NCBI GenBank assembly: GCA_964641455.1
Contig: CAZXLH010000002.1
Span: 50,774-114,773 of the forward strand
DNA from: an uncultured Eubacteriales bacterium
Lineage (GTDB): Bacteria; Bacillota; Sulfobacillia; Fermentithermobacillales; Fermentithermobacillaceae
Reading direction: 5' to 3'
DNA: 64,000 nt
Shown: one piece after another, positions 12,953 through 61,970 of the stretch
Layout: every line of letters starts with the position of its first letter
Position numbering within the stretch: position 1 is the stretch's first letter
Made by a program: the position numbers and the translations under genes
Notes under the pieces: generated by a model
What the model saw: the letters and a program-made list of their open reading frames with translations, nothing else
Database searches by the model: none
What the model was told of the DNA's origin: nothing

Positions 12953-13958
<1,006 letters not shown>

Positions 13959-25694: not shown

Positions 25695-26690
25695 CTAAGC
25701 CAGCGATGTCTCCAGCAATTCCCTTGGGGTTATGAGCATCAGATCTTTACGGCTGAAAGAGCCTTCTTTGACAAGACGGACTGCTTGCCTGCGAATAGCC
25801 CGTTCAACAAGATTTCTTACCATTCTGGCATTAGAAGGAATTCTTTCTTGGGAAATCTTCTCACGGATAATGTTTTTTAGCACTGTGTGTGATTCATGGG
25901 AAAGGCGGTATTCGCGCTTTTCCAGCATCAGGCAGGCTATTTGCACCAGTTCATCTATTGTATAGTCAGGAAAACTCAGATGGATAGGAAAGCGTGAGCG
26001 CAGCCCAGGGTTGGTGCTGAGAAAATGCTCCATTTCTTTAGGGTAACCTGCCAAAATGAACACCATTTGCTTGGCGTGATCCTCCATTCCTTTTACAATG
26101 CAATCAATGCATTCCTTTCCAAAGTCCTTTTCCCCGCCTCGTGCCAGGGAATAAGCTTCATCTATGAAAAGAATTCCGCCCAGCGCTTTGCGTATATGTT
26201 CCCTTGTTTTTTGAGCTGTGTGGCCAATGTACTCCCCTACAAGGTCAGCCCTTTCTACTTCGATTATGTGGCCCTTGGGCAGGAGCCCACCTTCAAAAAG
26301 CAGCCTACCCAGTATGCGTGCAATAGTGGTTTTTCCTGTTCCCGGGTTACCTTTGAAAATCATATGAAGTATTGTATTTTCTTCTGCAAGGCCTGCCTTA
26401 CCTCTACGTTTTTGAATTTCTGAAAATGCGTAGATTTCAAATATTAGCTCTTTTACATGAGATAAGCCTATTAGTGCGTTGAGTTCCTCAAGGGCGCTTT
26501 GTTCGTTTGCCGATTGTCTTTTCTTATGAACCCTTCTAAGAAATTGGTCTGTTTTATCGAAGGACGAGTTGTTTTTGTGGCTGGATACAACTCTTAAAAT
26601 CGGCCTGTTGTCATAATGTAGGATATTTCCGTACACCCAACAATACCTCCCCCGGACAATTGAATCTTCCAGCAGGATCATTATACGCAT
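25695..26690 (-). CDS. spoVK: Stage V sporulation protein K-like AAA+ ATPase.
   Basis: The translation has the Walker A motif GNPGTGKTT. The gene lies next to hflX, as spoVK does in B. subtilis. The start was taken at the internal ATG (MRIMILL); the ORF-track TTG at 26717 has no RBS. Confidence 0.7.
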   Translation of the reverse strand: MRIMILLEDSIVRGRYCWVYGNILHYDNRPILRVVSSHKNNSSFDKTDQFLRRVHKKRQSANEQSALEELNALIGLSHVKELIFEIYAFSEIQKRRGKAGLAEENTILHMIFKGNPGTGKTTIARILGRLLFEGGLLPKGHIIEVERADLVGEYIGHTAQKTREHIRKALGGILFIDEAYSLARGGEKDFGKECIDCIVKGMEDHAKQMVFILAGYPKEMEHFLSTNPGLRSRFPIHLSFPDYTIDELVQIACLMLEKREYRLSHESHTVLKNIIREKISQERIPSNARMVRNLVERAIRRQAVRLVKEGSFSRKDLMLITPRELLETSLA

Positions 26691-26774
26691 TGAGGCCTGG
26701 AGGTGATAGCAAACCAACTGGGCAGAAGGCCGGTTGCCTGTCTGCCCAGTGACTTTTGCTTGGCTCGGTACGGC

Positions 26775-41999: not shown

Positions 42000-42302
42000 C
42001 TAATTTCTGGGACTAACAATGAGTTTGATAGCTGTCCGTTCCTGACCATCTATAGTGATGTCAGTAAATGCGGGAACACATACAAGGTCAACTCCGCTTG
42101 GCGCCACAAACCCACGTGCAATAGCAACTGCCTTAATGGCTTGGTTGATAGCCCCTGCGCCTATGCCTTGAATTTCGGCGTACCCGCGCTCTCTAATAAC
42201 TCCGGCTAGCGCCCCTGCAACAGCATTAGGGCTTGACTTTGAGGAAACTTTGAGAACTTCAACGGACGTGGTATCTCGGCGATCTACGTTGGCTACTCCC
42301 AA
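42000..42302 (-). CDS. spoVS: Stage V sporulation protein S.
   Basis: The translation VEVLKVSSKSSPNAVAGALAGVIRERG...GAGAINQAIKAVAIARGFVAPSG is nearly identical to B. subtilis SpoVS. The start is a TTG preceded by a GGAGGG RBS, which gives a 13-aa N-terminal extension. Confidence 0.85.
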   Translation of the reverse strand: MGVANVDRRDTTSVEVLKVSSKSSPNAVAGALAGVIRERGYAEIQGIGAGAINQAIKAVAIARGFVAPSGVDLVCVPAFTDITIDGQERTAIKLIVSPRN

Positions 42303-43270: not shown

Positions 43271-43825
43271 TCACTTATGAAACACTAGCACCTTTTCACC
43301 TTCGCGTAATGCAACCAGTCTTTTGGGGCACTCAAGTTCCTTAATTTTGTCAAGCATTTCCTGTAAGAAGAATCTGGCCGACCAAGAAAAATCAGTGTCT
43401 GTAATGAGTGAATCATCTAAATCCAACAGTATGGGGACTTGGTCTGTAACCAGTGAAACAGTGAGGCTAAGCTCACCTGTAGATAACGAAGCAACGTCTC
43501 TTTCTACATGAAAAGAGTGGAAATCGTCTATGGTTTCCCAATTGCATTCAATAATGCTGCCGGTTTGCTTGGCCAACGAGAGGTATGCATCTATTGACTG
43601 TAGATACAGCGACTGCAATTTCTCACGTTTTGACTTGCTGACAGGGCCTTGGCACAAAAACACCAACTTTAGCCCTCGCCTTTCCGGGTCAAAGGTGATT
43701 TTTGATACCTGGGGGAAAGCTATGAGTAGCGCAGCCAAAACTTCAACATCTTTTTGAGATACTTGTTTGCCCCTCTGTTCGTGCTTATCTATATTTGTTT
43801 TTCTTTGAGTTGTATTATCAGACAT
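43271..43825 (-). CDS. Hypothetical protein with no recognisable domain.
   Basis: The start was taken at an ATG (MSDNTTQRK) with a GGAG RBS; the ORF track extends to a TTG at 43900. The gene sits tightly between rny and ymdB, 9 bp from ymdB. Confidence 0.5.
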   Translation of the reverse strand: MSDNTTQRKTNIDKHEQRGKQVSQKDVEVLAALLIAFPQVSKITFDPERRGLKLVFLCQGPVSKSKREKLQSLYLQSIDAYLSLAKQTGSIIECNWETIDDFHSFHVERDVASLSTGELSLTVSLVTDQVPILLDLDDSLITDTDFSWSARFFLQEMLDKIKELECPKRLVALREGEKVLVFHK

Positions 43826-43935
43826 TGTTTTGCTCCGTTTCAGCCTCTGGGCCTCTGATTGGCAAACTTGTTTGAATAGAGGCGCCGGCCCGCCTGGCAA
43901 AACCGGTTCCGACGCCTCAGTTTTTGCGTTAAATA

Positions 43936-47995: not shown

Positions 47996-49252
47996 TTATC
48001 TCCTGTGTTTTTGATGTTCTACTAAATAACGATACAAGACATACAATGCTCGTTGAGCTGCGTATTGTTTGGTTCTTGGCCTCGATGACGGATAAACTAT
48101 TTTGTCTGCAATAACTCCATATTTTTTGTGGCTGAGGCCTATGTATACAGTGCCTAAAGGCGCGTTTGGGGTACCTCCCTCAGGGCCTGCGAACCCGGTA
48201 GTCGCCAAACCCAAGTCGGCCCCAGCAAGAAGGCGGACACTGTCTGCCATATATTTTGCAACTTGTTCGTTTACTGCTTGGTCCTTGTGTACAACTTCCG
48301 GGGGTACCCCCAGGCTGGACATTTTGACTTTGGAGTCGTAAGCGATCATTCCCATTTTGAAGTATTTTGAACTTCCCGGGACCTCACTTAGCCTGTGACA
48401 TATTAAGCCTCCTGTTACAGACTCGGCTATAGCTACAGTCAGCCCTTTGGTTCTAAGCAGCCTGCCTACGGCTTGTTCCAATGTTTCGCTGTTTCTGCCA
48501 TATACATGATGCCCCAATCGCTTCCGCACTTCTTTTTCTACCTGAGAAATCATTGAAGCAGCTTCTTTTTCATTGCCGGTCTGAGCGGCTATTCTAAGCC
48601 TTACCTGTCCCGCCCCTGCGTAAGGCGCTACAGTTGGGTTTTTGTACGTGAGCAGGTCTTTGACCGTCTCAGCTACCATGGATTCGCCAAGACCTACTAT
48701 ATTGAGATTGACATAATGGATAGGCTCCAAATCCGGAAAGTGCTGCTTTATAAGCGGTACCACGTAGTTTTCAAACATAGGTTTCATTTCAGAGGGAGGC
48801 CCAGGAAGCAGCACTGCAAAGGTTTTATCAAACTTTATCGCTTGGCCGGGAGCCGTGCCTACCTCATTTGGGAGGAAAACCCCGCCATCTACAACATAGG
48901 CCTGTTTTTTATCGGAATCACCGCTTTTCCGATTACGTTTTGCAAACCATCTGTGCATGTTGTTCCATGCATTTTCATCAAATACCAGGTCTCGGTTCAG
49001 AGCAGAAGCGAGGCAACGAGCTGTTACATCGTCTTGAGTTGGGCCAAGCCCTCCTGTAGCTATAATAAGATCGGCTCGCTTGATTGAATCTTCAAAAGCC
49101 AAAAGAAGCCTTTTTGGATTATCTCCCACGGTAACTCTTCTATATACGTTTACCCCAATATCTCTCAGACGAGAAGAAAGATACTGGGCGTTTGTATCAA
49201 TAATTTCGCCCAGTAGAAGTTCAGTGCCTATGGAAAGGATTTCTGCGTTCAA
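47996..49252 (-). CDS. cinA: Competence/damage-inducible protein CinA.
   Basis: The N-terminus reads MNAEILSIGTELLLGEIIDTNAQYL and the C-terminus carries a CinA domain. The gene is upstream of recA, as cinA is in B. subtilis. Confidence 0.85.
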   Translation of the reverse strand: MNAEILSIGTELLLGEIIDTNAQYLSSRLRDIGVNVYRRVTVGDNPKRLLLAFEDSIKRADLIIATGGLGPTQDDVTARCLASALNRDLVFDENAWNNMHRWFAKRNRKSGDSDKKQAYVVDGGVFLPNEVGTAPGQAIKFDKTFAVLLPGPPSEMKPMFENYVVPLIKQHFPDLEPIHYVNLNIVGLGESMVAETVKDLLTYKNPTVAPYAGAGQVRLRIAAQTGNEKEAASMISQVEKEVRKRLGHHVYGRNSETLEQAVGRLLRTKGLTVAIAESVTGGLICHRLSEVPGSSKYFKMGMIAYDSKVKMSSLGVPPEVVHKDQAVNEQVAKYMADSVRLLAGADLGLATTGFAGPEGGTPNAPLGTVYIGLSHKKYGVIADKIVYPSSRPRTKQYAAQRALYVLYRYLVEHQKHRR

Positions 49253-49280
49253 AAAACCACCCCCGAAAATGAGCCGGAGT

Positions 49281-50819
49281 TTATACCCCTCTGATTATTC
49301 TACTCTTTCGAACAGGTGGTTTCCTCCATTTCCAAGAGAGTTTAGCCGGCAATTCAAGATATTCCTTTAGCCTTTCCCCTGAAACTGCTTCCTTTTCAAA
49401 TAACTCGTGAGATAATTCTCTGACAACGGTTTGATATTTCTTGAGTATCTTGGCCGCTGCAATTTCTGCATTCCTTATAATGTCGTTAGTAGCTCTTGCT
49501 ATAATGTCGTGAGAAGCTGTTTCCCTGTCTACAATTCCAATTGGCGACATTCCATACATTACAATTCTTTTGGCGATGTCAAGCGCCCTTTGAAAGTCAT
49601 TTGCCGCTCCTGTGCTTTTAGAACCAAACACTAGATTTTCTGCAATTGCCCCGGCCACAAGAATCTCAATTTCTTCCTCGAGCACTTCCCTGGGATACAG
49701 GTATCTGTCCTCTTGTGGCGCATGTCTCACAAATCCAAGAGCGTTGCCTCTGGGTGATACCGTTACATGGGCAACAGACCCTGGCCTTACTGTTTCCGCC
49801 ACAACGGCATGTCCGGCCTCATGAGCACATATGCGTTGCATTTCTGCATCTGATGGGCGCCTTTCAAGTTTCTCGCCTAAAATTACTTTATTTAGGGCTT
49901 CAGCCAGATCATCTGAACTTATTTCTTGTCCGCCTCTGCGTAGCGTGCCTATGGCAGCTTCATTGCAAAGGCTCTCAAGATGAGCTCCTGAAAGGCCAAA
50001 TGTCTCCCTCGCCAGGTTTTCAAGGTTAACTTCACTTGCCACCGGTTTGTTGCGAAGGTGGAGTTTAAGAATCTCCAGCCTCCCATGTTTGTCCGGAAGA
50101 TCCACCGTTACCGTTCGATCAAACCTTCCGGGCCTGAGGATCGCCGGATCCAACAAATCCGGCCTGTTAGTGGCAGCTACCACAAGGATTCTGACGTCGT
50201 TGTCAAATCTCAACCCATCCATTTCAACCAGCAATTGATTTAGGGTTTGATCATATTCCAAATGGCCAACTTGAGAACCACGCTTGCCGGCCAATACTTC
50301 AATTTCGTCAATAAATATTATTGCTCCGGACTTTTTACGCTCTCTTGCAAGGTTTCTGGCCCTGGAAAACAGTTCTCTTATTCGCTGAGCGCCAAGGCCT
50401 GCATATACTTCAATAAATTCAGAACCTGATGCTGAAATGAATACAGAATCAGTGTAGTTGGCTGCAGCTTTTGCAAGCAGTGTCTTTCCTGTTCCCGGGG
50501 GGCCAGACAACAGTACTCCTTTTAGGGGCCTGATTCCTAAAAGACTGGCTCTTTCATAGTCACCCAAAAACTCTAAGGCTTCTATTAGCTCCCTCTTCGC
50601 CACTTCTTGGCCTCCTACGTCTTCAAATCTGACGTTAGATGTTTCGGCCATAACGGCTCCGACTTTACGCTTGCCAAAGTTTCTTATTTGGCCACCTGAG
50701 GTATATAGAAAATAAGCAAGCCCGAGCACTATGAGAACAGGAAAAACATTAACTTTCAAGGCAATAAGGAAGGCCATAACGCCAAGTGCACCACCAAGCA
50801 CCACTTCTTTTTGGTTCAT
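49281..50819 (-). CDS. Short FtsH-family AAA+ zinc metalloprotease with a single N-terminal TM segment and no large extracytoplasmic domain.
   Basis: The translation has the Walker A motif GPPGTGKT, the second region of homology, and the zinc motif HEAGHAV. It is 512 aa. Confidence 0.7.
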   Translation of the reverse strand: MNQKEVVLGGALGVMAFLIALKVNVFPVLIVLGLAYFLYTSGGQIRNFGKRKVGAVMAETSNVRFEDVGGQEVAKRELIEALEFLGDYERASLLGIRPLKGVLLSGPPGTGKTLLAKAAANYTDSVFISASGSEFIEVYAGLGAQRIRELFSRARNLARERKKSGAIIFIDEIEVLAGKRGSQVGHLEYDQTLNQLLVEMDGLRFDNDVRILVVAATNRPDLLDPAILRPGRFDRTVTVDLPDKHGRLEILKLHLRNKPVASEVNLENLARETFGLSGAHLESLCNEAAIGTLRRGGQEISSDDLAEALNKVILGEKLERRPSDAEMQRICAHEAGHAVVAETVRPGSVAHVTVSPRGNALGFVRHAPQEDRYLYPREVLEEEIEILVAGAIAENLVFGSKSTGAANDFQRALDIAKRIVMYGMSPIGIVDRETASHDIIARATNDIIRNAEIAAAKILKKYQTVVRELSHELFEKEAVSGERLKEYLELPAKLSWKWRKPPVRKSRIIRGV

Positions 50820-51352
50820 AGTTCCGGGCCTCCCTTGATGTCTTTAAGATCCTTAATTCTGTAAAGATATTTTTCTTTAAGACGAAGTTGAATATAGATA
50901 TTATTGTCATTTACCGTAAGATTGAAGTCTTCTATGCCCATGTTCTTTAACACCAGGCTCGATTGATTGGCCATATCGCCAAAGTTCCCTCGCAGCCTGG
51001 CTTCCTCTACGTAGAAATGGATTAAGTCATACGCTTTTTCCAAGGTTTCGTCAGAATCGTCTCGAATCACGACTTCATAAGCTCGTTGGCCAACTATGTT
51101 TTGAACTGAGTCTTCAATCTTCTTATATGCCAAAGACAGATCATCAACATAACCAAGGCTCACATCAATTGTAATTGTGTCCTCTATTGACTCAATATCA
51201 GCCCTAAGAACATCGGGATTCTCGGACAGGCACTTTTTAAGAGGCCTTTCTATCCGAAAGACCCGGTAGGAATAGTGGGCAAGCGCTAATACCATCAATG
51301 CTAAGAACGCCCACAACAGCACATATTCCCATCGCATGTTTCTCATGGACAT
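50816..51352 (-). CDS. Small bitopic membrane protein of unknown function, translationally coupled to the FtsH-like gene.
   Basis: A GGAGAGG RBS is followed by an ATG (MSMRNMRWEY). One TM segment is present. The stop overlaps the downstream gene's start codon in an ATGA arrangement. Confidence 0.5.
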   Translation of the reverse strand: MSMRNMRWEYVLLWAFLALMVLALAHYSYRVFRIERPLKKCLSENPDVLRADIESIEDTITIDVSLGYVDDLSLAYKKIEDSVQNIVGQRAYEVVIRDDSDETLEKAYDLIHFYVEEARLRGNFGDMANQSSLVLKNMGIEDFNLTVNDNNIYIQLRLKEKYLYRIKDLKDIKGGPEL

Positions 51353-51561
51353 TGTGTCTTCCTCTCCAAATTTACAAAATAGACATACAGTTGACATAAG
51401 TATATCAATGATAGACAGGCTGTTCGAAGGTAATAGATGGACACATCTAAAGAGTTTGGCAAGGCTCCTATACTTGGCTATTTCAACAAGAATATGAAAG
51501 TGCCTAACCGATGCCGGGACATGCATCGGTTAGGTTGATTGTGCGTACAAATTAGCGGTTT

Positions 51562-52449
51562 CTAGCGCCTAAGGAATTCACAGACTCCTTTGGCTAAACC
51601 TCTGGCTACTGACTCCTGAAACCAATTCTGCCTCAAGAGGTTTACATCATTCCAGTTTGTCACAAATCCTATTTCCATCAAGGCTGCCGGCATATATGTT
51701 TGATTGAGTACGTAGTATGGGCCTTTTTGAACATCGATCATTCTAAGCCCTGTGTAGTCAGATACAGCCTGGGCAAGTGTTTTCGCCAATCGTTGCGATT
51801 CCCAAGAGCCATTCCTGTAAAAGCCCATGACTCCCGATACTTGCGAGTCATTGGGATATGCATTTATATGTATGCTGAGAAAAAGATCAGCACCCCTTGA
51901 ATTAGCTATAGAAACCCTGGCAAGCAGGTCATCTGCAGGTGGCCACCAGTCACTGCCTGGTGAATAGTCACCGTACCTGGTCATAATAACAACTGCCCCT
52001 TGAGATTCAAGGTATTTTCTGACTTTGGCCGCTATGTCAAGAGTAAAGTTCTTTTCTTTATCGCCCCAATAAGATATAGCTCCGGGTTCAGGCCCGCCAT
52101 GGCCAGGGTCTATCACGATTACTCTGTTTCTCAGTGGCCCCGATCCTCTTGAAACACTGTTTGCCCTTTCAAGAGCGTTCCAAGTAAGAGGGCCGGCAAT
52201 TCCGTCGACGGCCAAACCTGCACTTCTTTGAAACTCTATTGTTGCAAATTGGGTCCTTGAGCCGAAAATCCCATCAATAGGCCCTGGATTAAAACCGGCA
52301 TTCATAAGAGATTCCTGCAAATTGGCCACACTGTCTCCATAACTTCCCAATCGAAGGAGAGAAGCTGCGTGGCCTTGAATAGGAATAAGCACAGTGATTA
52401 GTATTAGTGTAATTACTGCTATAATTGTTGATAGCCTAGGTTTTGGCAT
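51562..52449 (-). CDS. N-acetylmuramoyl-L-alanine amidase (Amidase_3) with an N-terminal PG_binding_1 domain.
   Basis: An AGGAGG RBS is followed by an ATG (MPKPRLS), then a signal peptide. The translation contains LVDGIFGSRT and VIVIDPGHGG. Confidence 0.7.
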   Translation of the reverse strand: MPKPRLSTIIAVITLILITVLIPIQGHAASLLRLGSYGDSVANLQESLMNAGFNPGPIDGIFGSRTQFATIEFQRSAGLAVDGIAGPLTWNALERANSVSRGSGPLRNRVIVIDPGHGGPEPGAISYWGDKEKNFTLDIAAKVRKYLESQGAVVIMTRYGDYSPGSDWWPPADDLLARVSIANSRGADLFLSIHINAYPNDSQVSGVMGFYRNGSWESQRLAKTLAQAVSDYTGLRMIDVQKGPYYVLNQTYMPAALMEIGFVTNWNDVNLLRQNWFQESVARGLAKGVCEFLRR

Positions 52450-52559
52450 TAATGGTGTCCTCCTTCTTGCTTGACATAACGTGGTTATATTACATACTAC
52501 CTGATAAAAACAGGTATTCACCAGGAAAAATAAGGTTATCCATGGTTTGAGGGGGTAAT

Positions 52560-54842
52560 TTGGGTATGTCTAGTTCGGATATAGGCTATGTACTACGGGA
52601 TCTACGCCAGGATCCCAGATTCATGGCTTGCATAACTGGCTGGCATCATTTATCGGCTACTCCGGCTGATTATCTCGCTATCCCACATGACTTGCATCCT
52701 TCATTGAAACAAGCACTGAGCCAAAAGGGAATAAACGCGCTTTACGCTCACCAGCGAGATTCTTATGATCGAATTTCAAATGGCGAAGATATTTGTGTGG
52801 TAACTCCGACGGCATCAGGCAAGACTATGTGTTACAATTTGCCTGTGTTGGATTCGATCCTCAAGAATGATGCAACTTGTGCTTTATACATATTTCCGAC
52901 TAAAGCGCTTGCCCAAGATCAACTGGTTGAACTTCGTAATATGTGTAAGCCGGGTGGGTTTTCGATAAGATGTTTTAGTTATGATGGCGATACACCTTCA
53001 TACAAAAGAGGCATTGCGAGGCAAGCAGGGCAGATTATAATTACTAATCCAGACATGCTGCATCTGGCTATTCTTCCTCACCATTGTGCATGGGCCGGTT
53101 TTTTTGCCAGGTTGAAATATGTAATTATTGATGAAATGCATCACTACAGAGGGGTTTTCGGAAGCCATGTAGCCAATGTTTTAAGGAGGCTTATGCGAAT
53201 TTGCCTCTTCTATGGAACAACACCTCAATTCATTTTGGCTTCTGCAACAATTGCAAACCCAGGCGAGTTGGCTTCGGCTCTAACAGGCAGATCAGTGTCG
53301 TTGGTTGACAAGAGCGGTGCCCCGGTGTCAGAGAAGGATTTTATTTTTTACAACCCCCCCGCTCTTAGCAGTGAAGGTTCAATCAGGCAATCGGCAATAA
53401 ATGCTGCATCAAGGATTGCTTTACGGTTTGTTAGAAACAACATTCAAACTTTGATTTTTGCAAAATCCAGAAAGTCATGTGAATTGCTGGTACAATACCT
53501 TAGAAATTCGTTCACTGATGAGCCTAAGAAAGGCAAAGTTCAGGGTTATCGGGGTGGGTACTTACCTAAGCAACGAAGGGCAATAGAGGAAGGCCTTCGG
53601 AACGGAGATATTATAGGCGTAGCTGCCACCAACGCGTTAGAACTGGGAATAGATATAGGCAATCTTGATGTGGTGGTTATGGCGGGTTACCCGGGAACCA
53701 TATCCAGCACTTGGCAGCAAGCAGGCAGAGCCGGAAGAAGGCAAGCAAAGTCTGTTGTTATCTTAATAGCAGCAAGTTCTCCCCTTGACCAGTTTATAAT
53801 AAGCAACCCTGATTACTTCTTTGCCCAAAGCCCTGAACACGCAATGGTAAATCCCAATAACCCCTATATCCTTGAGCAACATGCAATGTGTGCAGTTTAC
53901 GAGCTTCCGTTTAGCACCGATGACATAGCATTCAGAGGCATAAGGATTCAACCTATCTTGGAAGATTTGGCCAAAAGAAAAATCCTGGACAAAGATTCAT
54001 GCAGGTGGAATTGGCCTTCGAATGGTTTTCCTGCAGCCGGGGTGAGTCTGAGATCTGCTGCCTGTGACAATTTTACTGTAATAGATATAACTCATAACTA
54101 TAAAACCATAGGCCGGGTTGACCGGGCTTCGGCTCCAATATTAATCCACGAGCAGGCTATCTATATGCATAAGGGGCAGCAATATCAAGTTATCAAATTA
54201 GATTATCAAAGCGGAAAAGCTTATGTAAAACAAGTTAACGTAGATTATTATACTGACGCTAACCTGGCTGTAGGCATCAAGGTCATGTCAGTTGAGAAAT
54301 CTTCCCGGGCCTTCCCTGTCAAATTCGGTAAGCTCTGTGTTACTGCGCTTGCCACCGTTTACAGAAAGATTAGGCTTTATACCAACGAGAATATCGGATC
54401 AGGCGAAATAAGCATTCCTGAAGCCAATTTGCATACCCAAGGCACATGGTTCCATATCCCCGATGATCTATGCAGTAACATCGAGCCATACTTGATAGGG
54501 CGTATACTTTTCGGAATCGCTAATGTGTTATCGAATATTGCTCCTTTGTTTCTTATGAGCGACAAGCAAGATTTGGGAGTCTCAGTAGAAGTTCGTTCTG
54601 CCTATGACGGTAAGCCTACGATATACTTATATGATTCTCATCCAGGCGGGCTGGGTTTGGCGGAAAAGACGTTCCATATTCTTCCCTATATCATAAAAGC
54701 CGGCCTTGATTTAATTTCATCTTGCCAGTGCCCAAAAGGTTGTCCCGGATGTGTGGGCCCTGAGCAAAAAGCCGGCCATTATGTTAAGATTTCGTGCCTT
54801 GAGGTGCTTGGTGCCATAAGTTCAAGGGTTAGGCCCAATTAA
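52560..54842 (+). CDS. DEAD/DEAH-box helicase with a C-terminal DUF1998 4-Cys domain (MrfA/YprA family).
   Basis: The helicase motifs I (TASGKT), II (DEMH) and VI (QAGRAGR) are present. The C-terminus reads CQCPKGCPGCV. Confidence 0.75.
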   Translation: MGMSSSDIGYVLRDLRQDPRFMACITGWHHLSATPADYLAIPHDLHPSLKQALSQKGINALYAHQRDSYDRISNGEDICVVTPTASGKTMCYNLPVLDSILKNDATCALYIFPTKALAQDQLVELRNMCKPGGFSIRCFSYDGDTPSYKRGIARQAGQIIITNPDMLHLAILPHHCAWAGFFARLKYVIIDEMHHYRGVFGSHVANVLRRLMRICLFYGTTPQFILASATIANPGELASALTGRSVSLVDKSGAPVSEKDFIFYNPPALSSEGSIRQSAINAASRIALRFVRNNIQTLIFAKSRKSCELLVQYLRNSFTDEPKKGKVQGYRGGYLPKQRRAIEEGLRNGDIIGVAATNALELGIDIGNLDVVVMAGYPGTISSTWQQAGRAGRRQAKSVVILIAASSPLDQFIISNPDYFFAQSPEHAMVNPNNPYILEQHAMCAVYELPFSTDDIAFRGIRIQPILEDLAKRKILDKDSCRWNWPSNGFPAAGVSLRSAACDNFTVIDITHNYKTIGRVDRASAPILIHEQAIYMHKGQQYQVIKLDYQSGKAYVKQVNVDYYTDANLAVGIKVMSVEKSSRAFPVKFGKLCVTALATVYRKIRLYTNENIGSGEISIPEANLHTQGTWFHIPDDLCSNIEPYLIGRILFGIANVLSNIAPLFLMSDKQDLGVSVEVRSAYDGKPTIYLYDSHPGGLGLAEKTFHILPYIIKAGLDLISSCQCPKGCPGCVGPEQKAGHYVKISCLEVLGAISSRVRPN

Positions 54843-54949
54843 CAGCGATTTCTACCTTGTAACTGTTATACCCTATGTTTTTCACTCATAACTATAAGCA
54901 ACCAAGGCTCTCTTTTTAACTCTTATTCTTGTCGAAAGGAGGAATATGA

Positions 54950-55675
54950 TTGCTCATTTCTTTAAAGCCACGTCATCGTGAGCGGGTGTTAATCTTCATT
55001 GCTTTTGCCTTGTTGGTTGCCGGTGCAAAAATAGGCGTCACGTTTCATGACAAAAGCGTTGCGGCCAATATAACCCCTTTAACTCGTGTAAAAACATCAG
55101 AACCGGTTATAGGCGTCATGGTTGACGTATCACAGGCTACTGCTGAATCTGTGGCTCAATGCTTAGGTGTTTTTGAATCTGCCGGCATTAAAGCCACCTG
55201 GTTTTGCTCGGCCACTTTTGCAGAAGCTCATGATGATTTGATACAGCAAATTATTGATAATGGCCATGAATTAGGGCTTTCGGGCACCGATGATAAGGCC
55301 ATGGACCGGCTTGACGATGCGGAAATTGAACTGCGGTTGGTTAGGGCAAGGGAAGCTCTTATTAAGACTGCCGAACCTATGCCCTTCTTTTATGCACCTG
55401 CAGGCCGTTTCAATAAGAAACTTGTAAATGCAGCTTTTGAGCAAGGGTTCTACTCAGTCAAAGGCTCCATTGACGGGAAAGCCCTTAGAGGAAAAGTAGA
55501 CAGCGTAGTAAGGAAGGTTGGCGGTTCTGCCAAGCCTGGCGACATACTTATAATACGCATAGGCAAGAAAGGCATGGTTCCCAAACCTGAGTATATTGAA
55601 AATCTGGCAACATACCTTAAAATTCAAGGAATGTCTATGGTAAGCCTGTCTACCCTGGTAAGAGGGATACGATAA
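54950..55675 (+). CDS. Polysaccharide-deacetylase-like (NodB-fold) protein with an N-terminal TM segment.
   Basis: An AAGGAGG RBS lies 6 nt before the TTG. Fold similarity is only moderate and the catalytic motifs were not verified. Confidence 0.45.
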   Translation: MLISLKPRHRERVLIFIAFALLVAGAKIGVTFHDKSVAANITPLTRVKTSEPVIGVMVDVSQATAESVAQCLGVFESAGIKATWFCSATFAEAHDDLIQQIIDNGHELGLSGTDDKAMDRLDDAEIELRLVRAREALIKTAEPMPFFYAPAGRFNKKLVNAAFEQGFYSVKGSIDGKALRGKVDSVVRKVGGSAKPGDILIIRIGKKGMVPKPEYIENLATYLKIQGMSMVSLSTLVRGIR

Positions 55676-55719
55676 CAGTTTGCTTATGAAGGCACCCGGT
55701 TTTCGCCAGGTTACCGGTT

Positions 55720-56916
55720 TTACTGAAGCCTCAGGTTACTGAAATATATGATAAGTTTTGAGGCCAGGCGTGCCATCAGCCGCCAGGGTGTTCGGGGGTT
55801 TACCCAGACACCTGCTACAAGTTCAGAATGTGCCACTACCTGGTCGCCTAAGCAAAGGGTAGCCTGGCCTATTACAGTTCCGGCAGGGCACGGTGCTTTA
55901 ATTGTGCCGGGTAAGTCAACGTGTATTCTTAAGCCCAGTGCGTATCTGGGTACACAGGCATGCAAATTATTTAGGCAATGTATTGGAACATATTTCTCAG
56001 TCGAATTGGATGCCGGCAGAGTAACAACAGTTTCTCCTGCCGACACTACTTTCACAAACCTGAAATTCTCAAAGCCGTATTCCAAAAGTTCGGCAGCATC
56101 ATGCCATCTGTCGTTGCTGTCAAGCACAATTGCCAAAAGACGCATTCCGTTTTTGGTTGCTGACGTAACAAGGCACTGTCCTGCAGCTTGAGTAGTACCT
56201 GTCTTGACACCGTCTACTTCGGGAAGAAGCCAAAGCAGCCGGTTGGTATTTTGAAGAGACAAGACTATATTTGTTTCAGCTTCAATAACATCTTTTTCTT
56301 TAGTGGCAACAAGGTTCTTAAAATAAGGGTGCCTAAGACAAACTCTGGCTATGAGTGCAAGGTCAAATGCAGTTGTGTAATGATTTGGATCAGTAAGCCC
56401 ATGAGGGTTTTCAAATCTGGTGTTTATCGCCCCCAGTTGCTTAGCCCGTTGATTCATTAAGGTGAAAAATTCCGAGGCAGATCCATGTCCTATATGTTCT
56501 GCAATTGCCCAAGCTGCATCATTGCCTGAATTTAACATTAACCCGTATAAGAGGCCTGTCAAACTAAACTTATTACCGGCTCTAAGATGCATAGACGAAC
56601 CGGGCTGAAACGCAGCGTCACGGGATACCTCAACTATGTCTTCCAAACGTCCTCGTTCCAACGCAATAAGGGCAGTCATCATCTTGGTCAGGCTGGCAGG
56701 ATGCATTCGGCTAAACCCTTGTTTCTCAAAAATTATGGAACCGGTTTGCCATTCCATCAATATTGCAGCCCTGGCAGATACTTGTGGCTGCCAGGATGGC
56801 CCGGCCCCCTGGCAATAAGCAAAATGTGTGTTATGGCTGTCTACGCAGGCAAGTATTATGAGCACTAAACACAATATTCCCGGTAACTTGCTCCTTCTAG
56901 AAGATAACACGCTCAT
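55720..56916 (-). CDS. Serine-type D-Ala-D-Ala carboxypeptidase (S11, DacB/DacF-like).
   Basis: The SxxK motif is ASLTKMMT, an SGN motif is present, and a signal peptide follows the internal ATG that has a GGAGTGA RBS. Confidence 0.75.
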   Translation of the reverse strand: MSVLSSRRSKLPGILCLVLIILACVDSHNTHFAYCQGAGPSWQPQVSARAAILMEWQTGSIIFEKQGFSRMHPASLTKMMTALIALERGRLEDIVEVSRDAAFQPGSSMHLRAGNKFSLTGLLYGLMLNSGNDAAWAIAEHIGHGSASEFFTLMNQRAKQLGAINTRFENPHGLTDPNHYTTAFDLALIARVCLRHPYFKNLVATKEKDVIEAETNIVLSLQNTNRLLWLLPEVDGVKTGTTQAAGQCLVTSATKNGMRLLAIVLDSNDRWHDAAELLEYGFENFRFVKVVSAGETVVTLPASNSTEKYVPIHCLNNLHACVPRYALGLRIHVDLPGTIKAPCPAGTVIGQATLCLGDQVVAHSELVAGVWVNPRTPWRLMARLASKLIIYFSNLRLQ

Positions 56917-56989
56917 ACCATCACTCCGAGTTTCTGAGAGGATCAAAAACATCATATGGGAATCCTTACGACGGTATGATGCTTAATAT

Positions 56990-59276: not shown

Positions 59277-61970
59277 TTACTCCGGGCCTACCGGCTGTTC
59301 CCGCAATTGCTTTAGGATTAGTCCAAGTTCATCCATGGTTTTTCCATAGCCTGCCCAATCTCCGTTTCTAAGCCTGTCTTGGGCCTCGGCCCAAAGCTCA
59401 TTGGCTCTTTCAATAAGATTCGATAGGCCGGCTGCTTCGATTTCTCCTGCAGGTGGTTCGGCTACGGGCCCCACCAGCTTATTTAAAGCATCTTCGACTG
59501 TAGTTCCCATAACAACCTGGCCGCCGGCATACATCAAAACACGCTTGAGTTCAGGTATTTTTACTTTTTCTGCTTGGATATACAAAGGTTCTACGTACAG
59601 GAATGAGCCATCCATTGGGATAGTCACAAGGTTTCCTCTTATCACTTGGGACCCAACCTGGCCCCAAAGTGTCGTAGCTTCTGAAATAGACGGATTTTGA
59701 GAAATAAGTGATTCGACTTGCATTGGCCCTGGTATATGTTTGTCTTTTGGCAAAACATAAAGCAGCATCTCTCCGTACCTTTCAGGGTCACATCTTACTG
59801 CCAGCCAAGCTGTCATGTTGGGCTTTCCCCTGGGTGTGAAAGGTATGATTTGCACATATTCAGTAGCAGTTTCCCCAGGCAAAGCAATCAAGATGTAGTA
59901 TGGCTCTACAGGTATTTCCTGATTGCCATAGATCTCCATTGGAATTTCCCAGTAGTCTTCCTTGTTGTAGTAAACTTGCGGATCGGTCATATGGTAAGTT
60001 GTAAGCATCCTGGTTTGCACTGTAAACATGTCCTGTGGAAAACGGATATGTTGCTTGAGTTCCTCTGGCATCTCATCCAGGGGCTTGGTCAACTGAGGGA
60101 AAACCTTCTCGTAAGTTTGCAACACCGGATCTGATTTATCAGCGCTGTAAAACACCGTTTCACCACTATAAGCATCGATTACCACTTTTACGGCATTTCT
60201 CATGTAGTTGACCCTTAATTGGGAGTCCGGTTGGCTATACGGATAGTTTGACGACACAGTATAGCCGTCAATGAACCAGTACAGTTTGCCTTCTGCAAGC
60301 ACCAGATATGGATCTTGGTCATATAGGAAAAAAGGTGCGATTGTTTTGGCCCGGCCAACAATGTTCCGATTCATGATTAGCCTTGAATCCGGGGTCAAAG
60401 CTCCTGACACTAATATCTGATAGTCCCGGAACCGAATGGTAAAAGCAAGTTTCTTAAGAAAATTGTTTAGGCTTATGCCTGCATCGCCCTGATAAAATGT
60501 AGGCTCTATCGTTTGAGAATCCAGTTTGGGATAATCGAATTCAGGCTCTTTGGTATTTACAATCACATAATGATTGGTCAGTTCTCCAAAATATAGTTCC
60601 GGCCGGGTGAGCAAAAGATCAGTTAGGGTCTTGGGAGGTACGTCTTTAAAGTAAAATGCCGGCATACCTTCTCGTGTTACTTCCCGTGAAGGGCTCATTA
60701 CCATGCCGTATCCATGAGTATATTTCAGGTGTAAGTTAACCCAGGTTTTTGCTTCCGCAGGCAAGAGGTTTATGTCCAATTCCCTGGGTGAAAGCAATAC
60801 TTGCCGAAGGTTGCCGTCTACAGTGTACCTGTCTATATCTACATCATTGAACTTGTAATACATCCTTATTTCTTGCACTTGGCTGAATGTGTCGCTGAGC
60901 ACACGGTAGTCCCATAGCCTTAGGTTGCTGATTGTATCCGGGTTAGCCAGGATATCGTCCCTGGCCAATGAGTCATCTGCAGGATATTCAACAATTTCAA
61001 TGTTATCTAACCCAAACGCGTGCCTGGTAAATTGTATGTTTTTCTCAATAAAAGGCTCTTCATATGCAATTTCGTTAGGAGATACGGTAAACTGCTGAAT
61101 GAAAGCAGGGTATGCATACCCGACTGCAAGAGACATAACTACGAGCCCAACAACAGCATATCCTACCCACCTGAAATTGTGCATAATAAGGCCCAGCAAC
61201 GAAAAGGCCACACCCGCCAACGCTACGGCAATTAGCCCTTTGTAAGTCGGAACCTGGGCATAAATGTCAGTATAAGAAGCTCCAAAGGCTACTCCCCTGG
61301 GAGAGTACATGAGATTCCAAATGTTGATCTTATAGTTCCACGCCCTTAGCCCAAACAATACAGCAGACAGAATCGACAGGTGGATGCGTGCCCTTCGAAC
61401 TACGATAATCCTTCTTTCGCCGAAACGTATGTCGCCGAAGATAAAATACATTATCCCCGAAAGAACCAAAGCTGCAATAAAAGCAACCCATAAGTGTTGC
61501 TGAAGCAGGCTAATGAACGGTAAAGTAAAAATGTAAAACCCTACGTCTTTCCCGAAAAACGGATCATTTATTTCAAACGGAGTAGCATTTAAGTGAGCCA
61601 AAATTACATGCCACTGGCTGTATCCGGACAATCCGCCCAGTATCCCTACTACCACAGAGATTATCAGAACCCAGCGCCCCATTCTTTCAGGCGAACGAAT
61701 GGGTACCGGCATAACCAGCCCGCCTACTACGTTTAGGTCACGCCGCCTCCACATAACCGCCATTAAATTAGCAAAAGCTACTGCAAAGAACAACAATCCC
61801 CCGGCTAGAGCTACAAGCCACCTGGCTTTAAAAATTGTCCAATATACAGAACTGTAGCCTAATTCTTCAAACCACAATATGTCCGTGTAAAATTTTGCTA
61901 TTCCTGTTGAGGCCAGAACTATGGCCACAGCTATGCCTATTAAGATCCAAAGCCATCGTTGTGTAGGCAT
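59277..61970 (-). CDS. UPF0182-family large polytopic membrane protein.
   Basis: The protein is 897 aa, its N-terminus (TDILWFEELGY) is typical of UPF0182, and it has about seven TM helices followed by a large soluble domain. Confidence 0.75.
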   Translation of the reverse strand: MPTQRWLWILIGIAVAIVLASTGIAKFYTDILWFEELGYSSVYWTIFKARWLVALAGGLLFFAVAFANLMAVMWRRRDLNVVGGLVMPVPIRSPERMGRWVLIISVVVGILGGLSGYSQWHVILAHLNATPFEINDPFFGKDVGFYIFTLPFISLLQQHLWVAFIAALVLSGIMYFIFGDIRFGERRIIVVRRARIHLSILSAVLFGLRAWNYKINIWNLMYSPRGVAFGASYTDIYAQVPTYKGLIAVALAGVAFSLLGLIMHNFRWVGYAVVGLVVMSLAVGYAYPAFIQQFTVSPNEIAYEEPFIEKNIQFTRHAFGLDNIEIVEYPADDSLARDDILANPDTISNLRLWDYRVLSDTFSQVQEIRMYYKFNDVDIDRYTVDGNLRQVLLSPRELDINLLPAEAKTWVNLHLKYTHGYGMVMSPSREVTREGMPAFYFKDVPPKTLTDLLLTRPELYFGELTNHYVIVNTKEPEFDYPKLDSQTIEPTFYQGDAGISLNNFLKKLAFTIRFRDYQILVSGALTPDSRLIMNRNIVGRAKTIAPFFLYDQDPYLVLAEGKLYWFIDGYTVSSNYPYSQPDSQLRVNYMRNAVKVVIDAYSGETVFYSADKSDPVLQTYEKVFPQLTKPLDEMPEELKQHIRFPQDMFTVQTRMLTTYHMTDPQVYYNKEDYWEIPMEIYGNQEIPVEPYYILIALPGETATEYVQIIPFTPRGKPNMTAWLAVRCDPERYGEMLLYVLPKDKHIPGPMQVESLISQNPSISEATTLWGQVGSQVIRGNLVTIPMDGSFLYVEPLYIQAEKVKIPELKRVLMYAGGQVVMGTTVEDALNKLVGPVAEPPAGEIEAAGLSNLIERANELWAEAQDRLRNGDWAGYGKTMDELGLILKQLREQPVGPE

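Follow-up and report, generated by a model that had tools for sequence, protein, structure and literature searches.

Two adjacent genes on the reverse strand of a 64,000-nucleotide (nt) stretch of contig CAZXLH010000002.1 (hereafter the window), assembled from an uncultured Eubacteriales bacterium of the Fermentithermobacillaceae, probably encode one subunit each of a non-canonical AAA+ zinc protease bound to the membrane, a reading to which we give a probability of roughly 0.6. The larger gene (49281..50819) codes for a 512-amino-acid (aa) FtsH paralogue, a membrane AAA+ zinc metalloprotease without an ectodomain, as judged from its open reading frame (ORF), Pfam and NCBIfam profiles, a family alignment, matches in the Protein Data Bank (PDB) and an AlphaFold2 (AF2) model. 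The smaller gene (50816..51352; ATG at 51352, stop at 50816) lies directly upstream and codes for a 178-aa bitopic membrane protein of an uncharacterised family, called here the partner. The original prediction for this locus was a two-component membrane protease and adaptor pair. The two-gene core of that idea is strongly supported by comparative genomics, while the adaptor role is one that we infer.

The partner gene ends with a TGA that overlaps the ATG of the protease gene in the tetranucleotide ATGA (50816..50819, reverse strand, as are all features of the pair; junction GGCCCGGAACTATGAACC), and because this overlap couples their translation, both proteins would be made together. The overlap had been recognised before, but the upstream ORF encodes 178 aa and not the 179 aa then given. 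Each gene has a Shine-Dalgarno sequence of its own: GGGAGG (50829..50834) is located within the 3' end of the partner gene, 9 nt before the ATG of the protease gene, and GGAGAGG (51361..51367) precedes the ATG of the partner gene by 8 nt. The Rfam search of positions 49000-52700 matched no family.

Conservation of the gene pair

Relatives were sought in one genome per species with the N-terminal alignment of the family and the patterns [LM]GIRPL[KR]G[IV]L and AK[RKQ]ELxEAL[ED]. The scan confirmed at least 519 relatives, and the locus counts given below rest on the best 80. A partner homologue ended at the start of the protease gene in 76 of these 80 loci (profile hidden Markov model of the partner, E from 1e-7 to 1e-78) and was situated 200-300 nt upstream in two further loci (L044 and L084). 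The last two loci are contig ends, so the partner was found upstream and on the same strand in 78/78 testable loci. Among the 75 full-length pairs, the genes overlap in 54 (by 4 nt in 34 pairs and by 8 nt in 11) and lie within 50 nt of each other in 19; the intergenic distances range from -41 to +194 nt, with up to about 300 nt in the two further loci.

Likewise, every close relative of the small protein (46-73% identity) is encoded just before a 512-aa FtsH-like gene, and the two genes share 4 nt. The same arrangement was shown by four loci found independently through distant FtsH-like relatives, namely those of Anoxybacter fermentans, a Thermoanaerobacterales metagenome-assembled genome (MAG) and two other Bacillota MAGs, each with an unannotated ORF of 170-185 aa directly upstream that aligns over its full length with the window partner.

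The pair is carried, among others, by Fermentithermobacillaceae, Symbiobacteriaceae (Symbiobacterium), Desulfosporosinus, Paradesulfitobacterium, Thermincola, Tepidanaerobacter, Thermovorax, Sulfobacillus, a Negativicutes MAG and Dethiobacteria, and within the Bacilli by Brevibacillus, Paenibacillus and Paenactinomyces. Its hosts therefore span Clostridia, Negativicutes and Bacilli. Conservation across Clostridia had been proposed as a check of the original prediction; the pair was conserved in all testable loci and reaches beyond that class, and a protease gene deprived of its upstream ORF, which would have spoken against the pairing, was not seen in any of them.

The neighbours of the pair vary. 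Many Clostridia have the order ftsK-rodZ-rimO-pgsA-[pair]-cinA-ligT-recA, while Paenibacillus and Paenactinomyces have an amidohydrolase gene upstream and genes for a 3-hydroxyacyl-CoA dehydrogenase and ackA downstream, and other neighbourhoods occur elsewhere among the loci. In the window, the same-strand neighbour upstream encodes a protein with Amidase_3 and PG_binding_1 domains, and the same-strand genes downstream are cinA, ligT, recA, recX, rny, ymdB and spoVS. The adjacency to cinA-recA and a cell-wall amidase noted earlier is thus present, but it is a lineage-specific synteny that falls outside the conserved unit. As Bacilli and several other lineages lack these neighbours, we rejected the idea that the pair is generally tied in function to cinA-recA or the amidase. 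The conserved unit is the gene pair itself: it is kept while its neighbours change, and the protease gene is therefore linked to the partner gene and not to recA or the amidase gene. The view that the two genes are adjacent without any functional relationship is effectively refuted by the comparative data, given 78/78 linkage over class-level divergence and changing neighbourhoods, mostly overlapping stop and start codons and a shared promoter.

In one Brevibacillus locus (L051, 4833-5312) and in one unrelated Bacillota MAG (L031, 4840-5343), the pair is immediately preceded by a gene for a protein with a TseB-like domain (cell-wall elongation regulator), a faint hint of an envelope connection.

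An FtsH paralogue without an ectodomain

Pfam recognised in the 512-aa protein an AAA domain at aa 102-240 (PF00004, 1.4e-36), AAA_lid_3 and Peptidase_M41 at aa 323-486 (PF01434, 2.8e-30). The AAA+ module with its lid extends over aa 62-314 (49878..50636). The M41 domain (49362..49853) holds the HEAGH motif at aa 333-337 (49809-49823) and the third zinc ligand, D408, in GAANDF, which aligns with the zinc-ligand motif GAANDI (GAANDIERA) of Thermotoga maritima FtsH. In an alignment of 51 family members, 52-81% identical to the window protease, the invariant or near-invariant residues comprise Walker A (G106-T113, GPPGTGKT, with K112), Y139 and G141 of the pore loop, Walker B (D171/E172), sensor-1 N218, the arginine fingers R229/R232 of the second region of homology, and H333, E334, H337 and D408. 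The catalytic motifs are kept in 74-79 of the 80 genomic loci. The complete AAA+ module and HEAGH zinc site described in the original prediction are borne out by these matches and invariant residues.

When the AAA segment was searched alone against the PDB, FtsH was the best single-domain match (about 245 bits), and Cdc48/VAT outscored it only through the summing of two domains. The M41 segment matched only FtsH, YME1 and AFG3L2. Moreover, the AF2 model of the protease (predicted local distance difference test, pLDDT, 83) superposes on FtsH structures at 43-44% identity, the value for T. maritima FtsH also being 43-44%.

Compared with canonical FtsH (TIGR01241; T. maritima 7tdo/2ce7, Escherichia coli 7vhp), the window protease shares the classic-clade AAA+ module with its pore-loop aromatic residue and second region of homology, the M41 domain with HEXXH and an Asp ligand, and the Gly/Lys-rich linker, the cytosolic part being 43-44% identical. 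However, canonical FtsH has an extracytoplasmic domain of 70-100 aa between its transmembrane (TM) helices, whereas the window protease has none and its predicted TM helices are shorter. No FtsH_ext domain was matched by Pfam in the 512-aa protein, and NCBIfam TIGR01241 (FtsH) gave 453.2 bits, below its curated cut-off of 600, with an alignment spanning only profile positions 107-596 of 598. The earlier statement that the protein has essentially no extracytoplasmic domain is confirmed by both results. The family also carries signatures unlike those of canonical FtsH, GGQxxAKxEL and LGIRPLKG. Its gene always has a dedicated upstream gene and is located at most of the Clostridia loci between rimO-pgsA and cinA-recA, whereas canonical ftsH clusters with tilS according to PMC8136486. 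Judged by its sequence, the 512-aa protein is an intact, active-looking FtsH paralogue without an ectodomain.

The mitochondrial i-AAA protease YME1 is likewise an FtsH-family member whose membrane anchor is reduced and which lacks an ectodomain of the FtsH type, but it crosses the membrane with one TM helix and is exposed to the intermembrane space. In sequence, YME1 is also more distant: the M41 part of the window protease scores 56 bits with YME1 against 82 bits with bacterial FtsH.

Membrane anchor of the protease

The N-terminal membrane anchor (aa 3-40; 50700..50813) was delimited by hydropathy, alignment and the AF2 model, and probably consists of two hydrophobic helices with the conserved turn L21-K-V-N24-V-F-P27; E5 and G9 are conserved too. 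Its hydrophobic stretch covers aa 6-40 (35 residues), and throughout the family the anchor is made of two uncharged segments of about 15 aa and about 19-20 aa, split by the conserved turn with the pattern G-x-N-x-x-P, so that the predicted helices stand about 5 residues apart. G9 and P27 are invariant in the N-terminal alignment, and E5, L18 and N24 nearly so; G22 is nearly invariant in the 51-member full-length alignment, and G22 and N24 are each found in at least 90% of the sequences. AF2 placed helices at 3-20 and 26-40 with a break at 21-25 (pLDDT 83-89), followed by a disordered Gly/Lys linker at 46-57. Across 188 family members, the mean number of Lys/Arg residues is 1.4 in the N-tail and 3.3 in the C-flank (about 4.7 together), compared with 0.33 in the turn.

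Since the turn is conserved, AF2 gives two helices and the positive charges flank the anchor but avoid the turn, the anchor is probably a two-helix hairpin with both ends in the cytoplasm (N-in/C-in), that is, the canonical FtsH topology minus the ectodomain; a single TM helix is less likely on these models. The claim that the protease has only one TM helix is therefore probably incorrect. Finding a second helix together with a periplasmic domain would have made the protein a canonical FtsH; the second helix is probable, and no periplasmic domain was found.

The partner protein

The partner has a short basic N-tail (7 aa, 2-3 positive charges) such as signal anchors typically have, a single TM helix at aa ~10-29 (51266..51325), a stalk with P37-L38 and an alpha/beta domain at aa 44-170 (50843..51223), which is predicted to be extracytoplasmic. 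The TM helix was located by hydropathy, and its uncharged stretch has a median length of 22 aa in 74 homologues. The soluble domain of about 130-145 aa includes the helix-turn-helix motif IHFYxEEAxxRGNFGxM with E117, G122 and M127, and its conserved residues are Y76, D98, L104, E117, G122, F124, M127, D148, Y153 and L163-Y164. The original description of an upstream ORF with one TM helix and a domain of about 150 aa of unassigned fold agrees with these results: a single TM segment near the N-terminus is followed by about 145 aa of soluble domain, and Pfam and NCBIfam searches with the window partner and eight diverse homologues yielded no family and no Band_7/SPFH domain.

An exhaustive profile search found 855 partner clusters at 50% identity, 737 of them at E<=1e-10. 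Among the 150 clusters listed, nearly all proteins have 165-205 aa and none is long enough for a fusion with the protease. The family is uniform and stand-alone, typically 170-190 aa long, and the short basic N-tail, the single TM helix and the P-L stalk motif occur family-wide. Every member examined is labelled 'hypothetical' or 'uncharacterized' in RefSeq/UniProt.

The flank N-terminal to the TM helix is more positive than the C-terminal flank in 62 of 74 sequences, the reverse being true in 2 of 74, and the domain is acidic (median pI 5.3) and nearly free of Cys in these sequences. Because of this charge bias and domain composition, the partner is predicted to be a type-II single-pass protein with its N-terminus inside and its C-terminus outside (N-in/C-out). 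However, the C-flank also has 2-3 Lys/Arg, so the bias is one of charge density and is not absolute. This leaves some room for the opposite orientation (N-out/C-in), in which a cytoplasmic globular domain would sit at the face of the AAA ring nearest the membrane and serve there as a gate, an inhibitor or an adaptor for substrates. The entry route of FtsH substrates runs through the gap that separates the AAA ring from the membrane, which makes this gap a natural adaptor site, and the protease hairpin offers almost nothing outside for an ectodomain to bind. Still, the distribution of charges over the 74 sequences, the signal-anchor type of N-tail and the acidic, nearly Cys-free domain argue for the outside location, as does the strong conservation of the external turn of the protease (N24, P27), which suggests a contact there. 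We therefore consider a cytoplasmic domain unlikely.

The AF2 model of the partner (pLDDT 81.8; predicted template modelling score, pTM, 0.67) shows a long helix made of the TM segment and the stalk, then strand-strand-helix-strand, followed by helix-helix-strand-strand-strand. Foldseek searches of the PDB with this model gave marginal uS3-like matches only. The C-terminal domains of CzcD/MamB, uS3 and the C-domains of ANL ligases match as well as ring-building-motif proteins do, and generic ferredoxin-like domains score about equally, so any fold assignment is tentative. The partner-family profile retrieved nothing meaningful from the PDB sequences at an E of 10, and no FtsH chain even though full-length FtsH entries are present. 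There was thus no sign that the domain derives from the FtsH periplasmic domain or is a homologue of a solved structure, and both candidates were set aside.

This result also bears on an origin by gene fission, in which the partner would be the detached first TM helix and periplasmic domain of a canonical FtsH, and the protease would start outside and cross the membrane once. The order of the parts and their predicted orientation fit such a split (TM helix, ectodomain with an outside C-terminus, membrane segment, cytosolic AAA-M41), and TIGR01241 aligns the protease from aa 18 onward to the region of the second TM helix of FtsH. Nevertheless, fission is improbable: besides the failure of the partner profile to retrieve any FtsH chain, the N-terminus of the protease comprises two predicted hydrophobic helices that are separately conserved, the G-x-N-x-x-P break and a positive N-tail. 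A frameshifted or mis-started canonical FtsH was rejected, as the two ORFs are separate and in different frames, each with its own Shine-Dalgarno sequence and start codon, in every lineage.

Promoter, leader and probable terminator

An extended -10 element of the sigma-A type, TGATATACT (51399..51407), is found about 45 nt upstream of the partner start codon. Of the 75 orthologous upstream regions, 65 carry TGnTATA[AC]T at the corresponding position, compared with 0.9 expected from shuffled sequences, and a weak -35 element, TnGAAa, accompanies it. Elements of the sigma-E, K, F or G type were not enriched upstream of the pairs; CATAC and GCATA were rare, and CATA and GTATA showed no positional clustering. 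A hairpin with a 12-base-pair stem and an 8-nt loop (51503..51534) follows just after the stop codon of the amidase gene, and in the alignment of close relatives a hairpin of different sequence takes the equivalent place after the upstream gene. The window hairpin probably terminates the amidase gene and sets the pair apart as a transcription unit of its own. Given this hairpin, the conserved extended -10 element and the lack of enrichment of sporulation sigma elements, the pair is predicted to form its own sigma-A-dependent unit; its transcription possibly reads through into cinA.

A further conserved element, CCA followed about 4-5 nt on by a run of T, lies at -34..-25 relative to the TG of the extended -10 element (window ~51432-51441). 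It is too far upstream for a -35 hexamer and is found across lineages with differing upstream genes.

Comparison of the orthologous leaders revealed a motif just downstream of the -10 element, TTATGTCAACT in the window (51389..51399), with the family consensus TTATGT[A/T/C]AACT. With at most one mismatch, it is present in 30 of 75 loci (L012-L091), always in one orientation. The sequence of this 11-mer is that of the XerD-binding arm of dif. It has no XerC arm beside it, and a full dif site at the operon promoter was rejected on at least 7 mismatches in 28 positions, the XerD-arm-like 11-mer alone being conserved. XerD also binds sites other than dif, where it unloads SMC at the terminus (Karaboja et al. 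2021, as cited in PMC12322038). Operators of WalR, Spo0A, PerR/Fur and CtsR were compared with the motif by eye and none fits. The motif may be an operator or a XerD-binding site.

The promoter is also relevant to a possible role in sporulation. According to the phylogenomic account of Garcia et al. 2021 (PMC8136486), Firmicutes carry the paralogues FtsH(P1)/FtsH(P2), one of which follows the distribution of SpoIID and was put forward as a possible sporulation protease. The pair might be this SpoIID-linked FtsH paralogue, acting specifically in sporulation, with the partner as a SpoIIIAH-like ring or zipper protein in the forespore intermembrane space. The window protease is likewise a second FtsH-family gene in Firmicutes; FtsH(P2) is the paralogue described there as co-distributed with SpoIID and proposed for sporulation, and the main text gives no architecture, partner gene or neighbourhood for these paralogues (PMC8136486). 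The named hosts are mostly endospore-forming (Brevibacillus, Paenibacillus, Thermoactinomycetaceae, Desulfosporosinus, Symbiobacterium, Sulfobacillus, Thermincola), the window encodes SpoVS and a SpoVK-like ATPase, and the architecture of the partner is SpoIIIAH-like. However, the conserved promoter has a sigma-A-type extended -10 element, and CATA- and GCATA/GTATA-type elements are not enriched; the phyletic pattern is drawn from the best 80 loci only, and the family is an unconfirmed candidate for FtsH(P2). The likeness of the partner to ring-building motifs is weak: it has no sequence-family match with SpoIIIAH, SpoIIIAG, EscJ/PrgK or FliF, and the order of elements in its model is bb-a-b then aa-bbb, whereas the ring-building motif is a-bb-a-b. 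A sporulation-specific protease is thus conceivable, although we do not favour it.

Proposed mechanism

In the preferred reading of a two-subunit protease, the large subunit would contain the full unfoldase, the peptidase and the Gly/Lys-rich linker, anchored by the hairpin and exposing only a conserved turn of 3-5 residues at the extracytoplasmic face. The small subunit would be oriented N-in/C-out and add an ectodomain of the alpha/beta type, acidic and about 130 aa long. The TM helix of this subunit may pack against the protease hairpin, whose first helix has a G-x3-G-like pattern. The protease, presumably a hexamer, would in this way gain in trans the extracytoplasmic module that canonical FtsH holds in cis, and the partner module, acting from the outer side of the membrane, would regulate how the protease assembles, where it localises or whether substrates gain access, with degradation taking place in the cytoplasm, as with FtsH. 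An N-in/C-in two-helix anchor is probably a further likeness to canonical FtsH, going by the models.

A known parallel is the holoenzyme of FtsH with HflK/HflC (SPFH), in which a FtsH hexamer is joined by N-in bitopic partners whose bulk is extracytoplasmic and which modulate substrate access. The partner differs from HflK/HflC in its size of 178 aa and in having no SPFH/Band_7 domain. HflK/C bind the periplasmic domain of FtsH, the very domain that is absent from the window protease, and the partner gene is translationally coupled to the protease gene.

Some points weigh against two stoichiometric subunits. Strict linkage would be equally expected if the small protein were a dedicated substrate, an inhibitor or an assembly factor. 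The topologies of both proteins are drawn from charge statistics and the secondary structure of monomer AF2 models. Moreover, full membrane spans would call for longer helices than those predicted for the hairpin (about 15 uncharged aa in the first and 19-20 aa in the second), and the hairpin may therefore be a shallow one.

A bolder version of the two-subunit reading, which we put forward only tentatively and rate as rather unlikely, is that the partner forms an extracytoplasmic ring atop the hairpin-anchored hexamer. In such a 'split FtsH' holoenzyme, sensing or gating would fall to an ectodomain that is a subunit of its own and can be exchanged; the complex would be an unrecognised, widely conserved proteostasis machine of the envelope or forespore membrane in endospore-forming Firmicutes.

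Other features of the window

A near-perfect Firmicutes dif site, ACGTCCTATAATATACATTATGTAAACT, is located in a low-GC intergenic gap (12955-12982, reverse strand); it is identical to Bacillus subtilis dif in 25 of 28 positions. The cumulative GC skew peaks at about 20-22 kb, where the gene orientation flips from forward to reverse. Because of the dif-like site, the skew peak and the orientation flip, the window probably spans the replication terminus.

Several genes are related to sporulation or the cell wall: a SpoVK-like AAA ATPase (25695-26717, reverse strand; 408 bits, just under the cut-off of 423), a SpoVS homologue (42000-42302, reverse strand) and DacB-like, PdaB-like and CwlD-like genes (51562-56955). 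Together they suggest an endospore-forming lineage of 'Ca. Fermentithermobacillaceae'-like MAGs.

A MrfA-type helicase (DEAD, Helicase_C, WHD_HRQ1, MZB) is encoded at 52560-54842 on the forward strand. Three relatives (L001-L003) have such a helicase gene with a 416-aa RNase_H_2/DNA_pol_B_exo2 (MrfB-like) gene behind it; the next gene in the window codes for a polysaccharide deacetylase, so the window apparently lacks the exonuclease partner. Between rny and ymdB, an ORF of 209 aa (43271-43900, reverse strand) had no Pfam or NCBIfam match. Next to asnS, a large UPF0182 membrane protein of unassigned function (897 aa, 940 bits) is encoded at 59277-61970 on the reverse strand.

Significance

To our knowledge, bacteria have no membrane-anchored AAA+ protease other than FtsH, and the way in which its ectodomain and partners such as HflK/C govern substrate entry is still debated. 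The family described here amounts to a natural experiment on this question, since the ectodomain is removed and a dedicated bitopic partner is always co-encoded.

The existence of FtsH paralogues in Firmicutes is already known from phylogenomics (PMC8136486). Our searches of the literature, Pfam and NCBIfam brought up no earlier account of the architecture, the partner family or the linkage, the literature yielding just the phylogenomic mention in PMC8136486. The FtsH family described here occurs in at least about 500 species, including the genetically tractable Brevibacillus and Paenibacillus. A family of about 855 clusters of 'hypothetical proteins', worthy of a name, gains a concrete functional context, and the pair is a testable candidate for the sporulation-linked FtsH paralogue that was postulated from phylogenomics.

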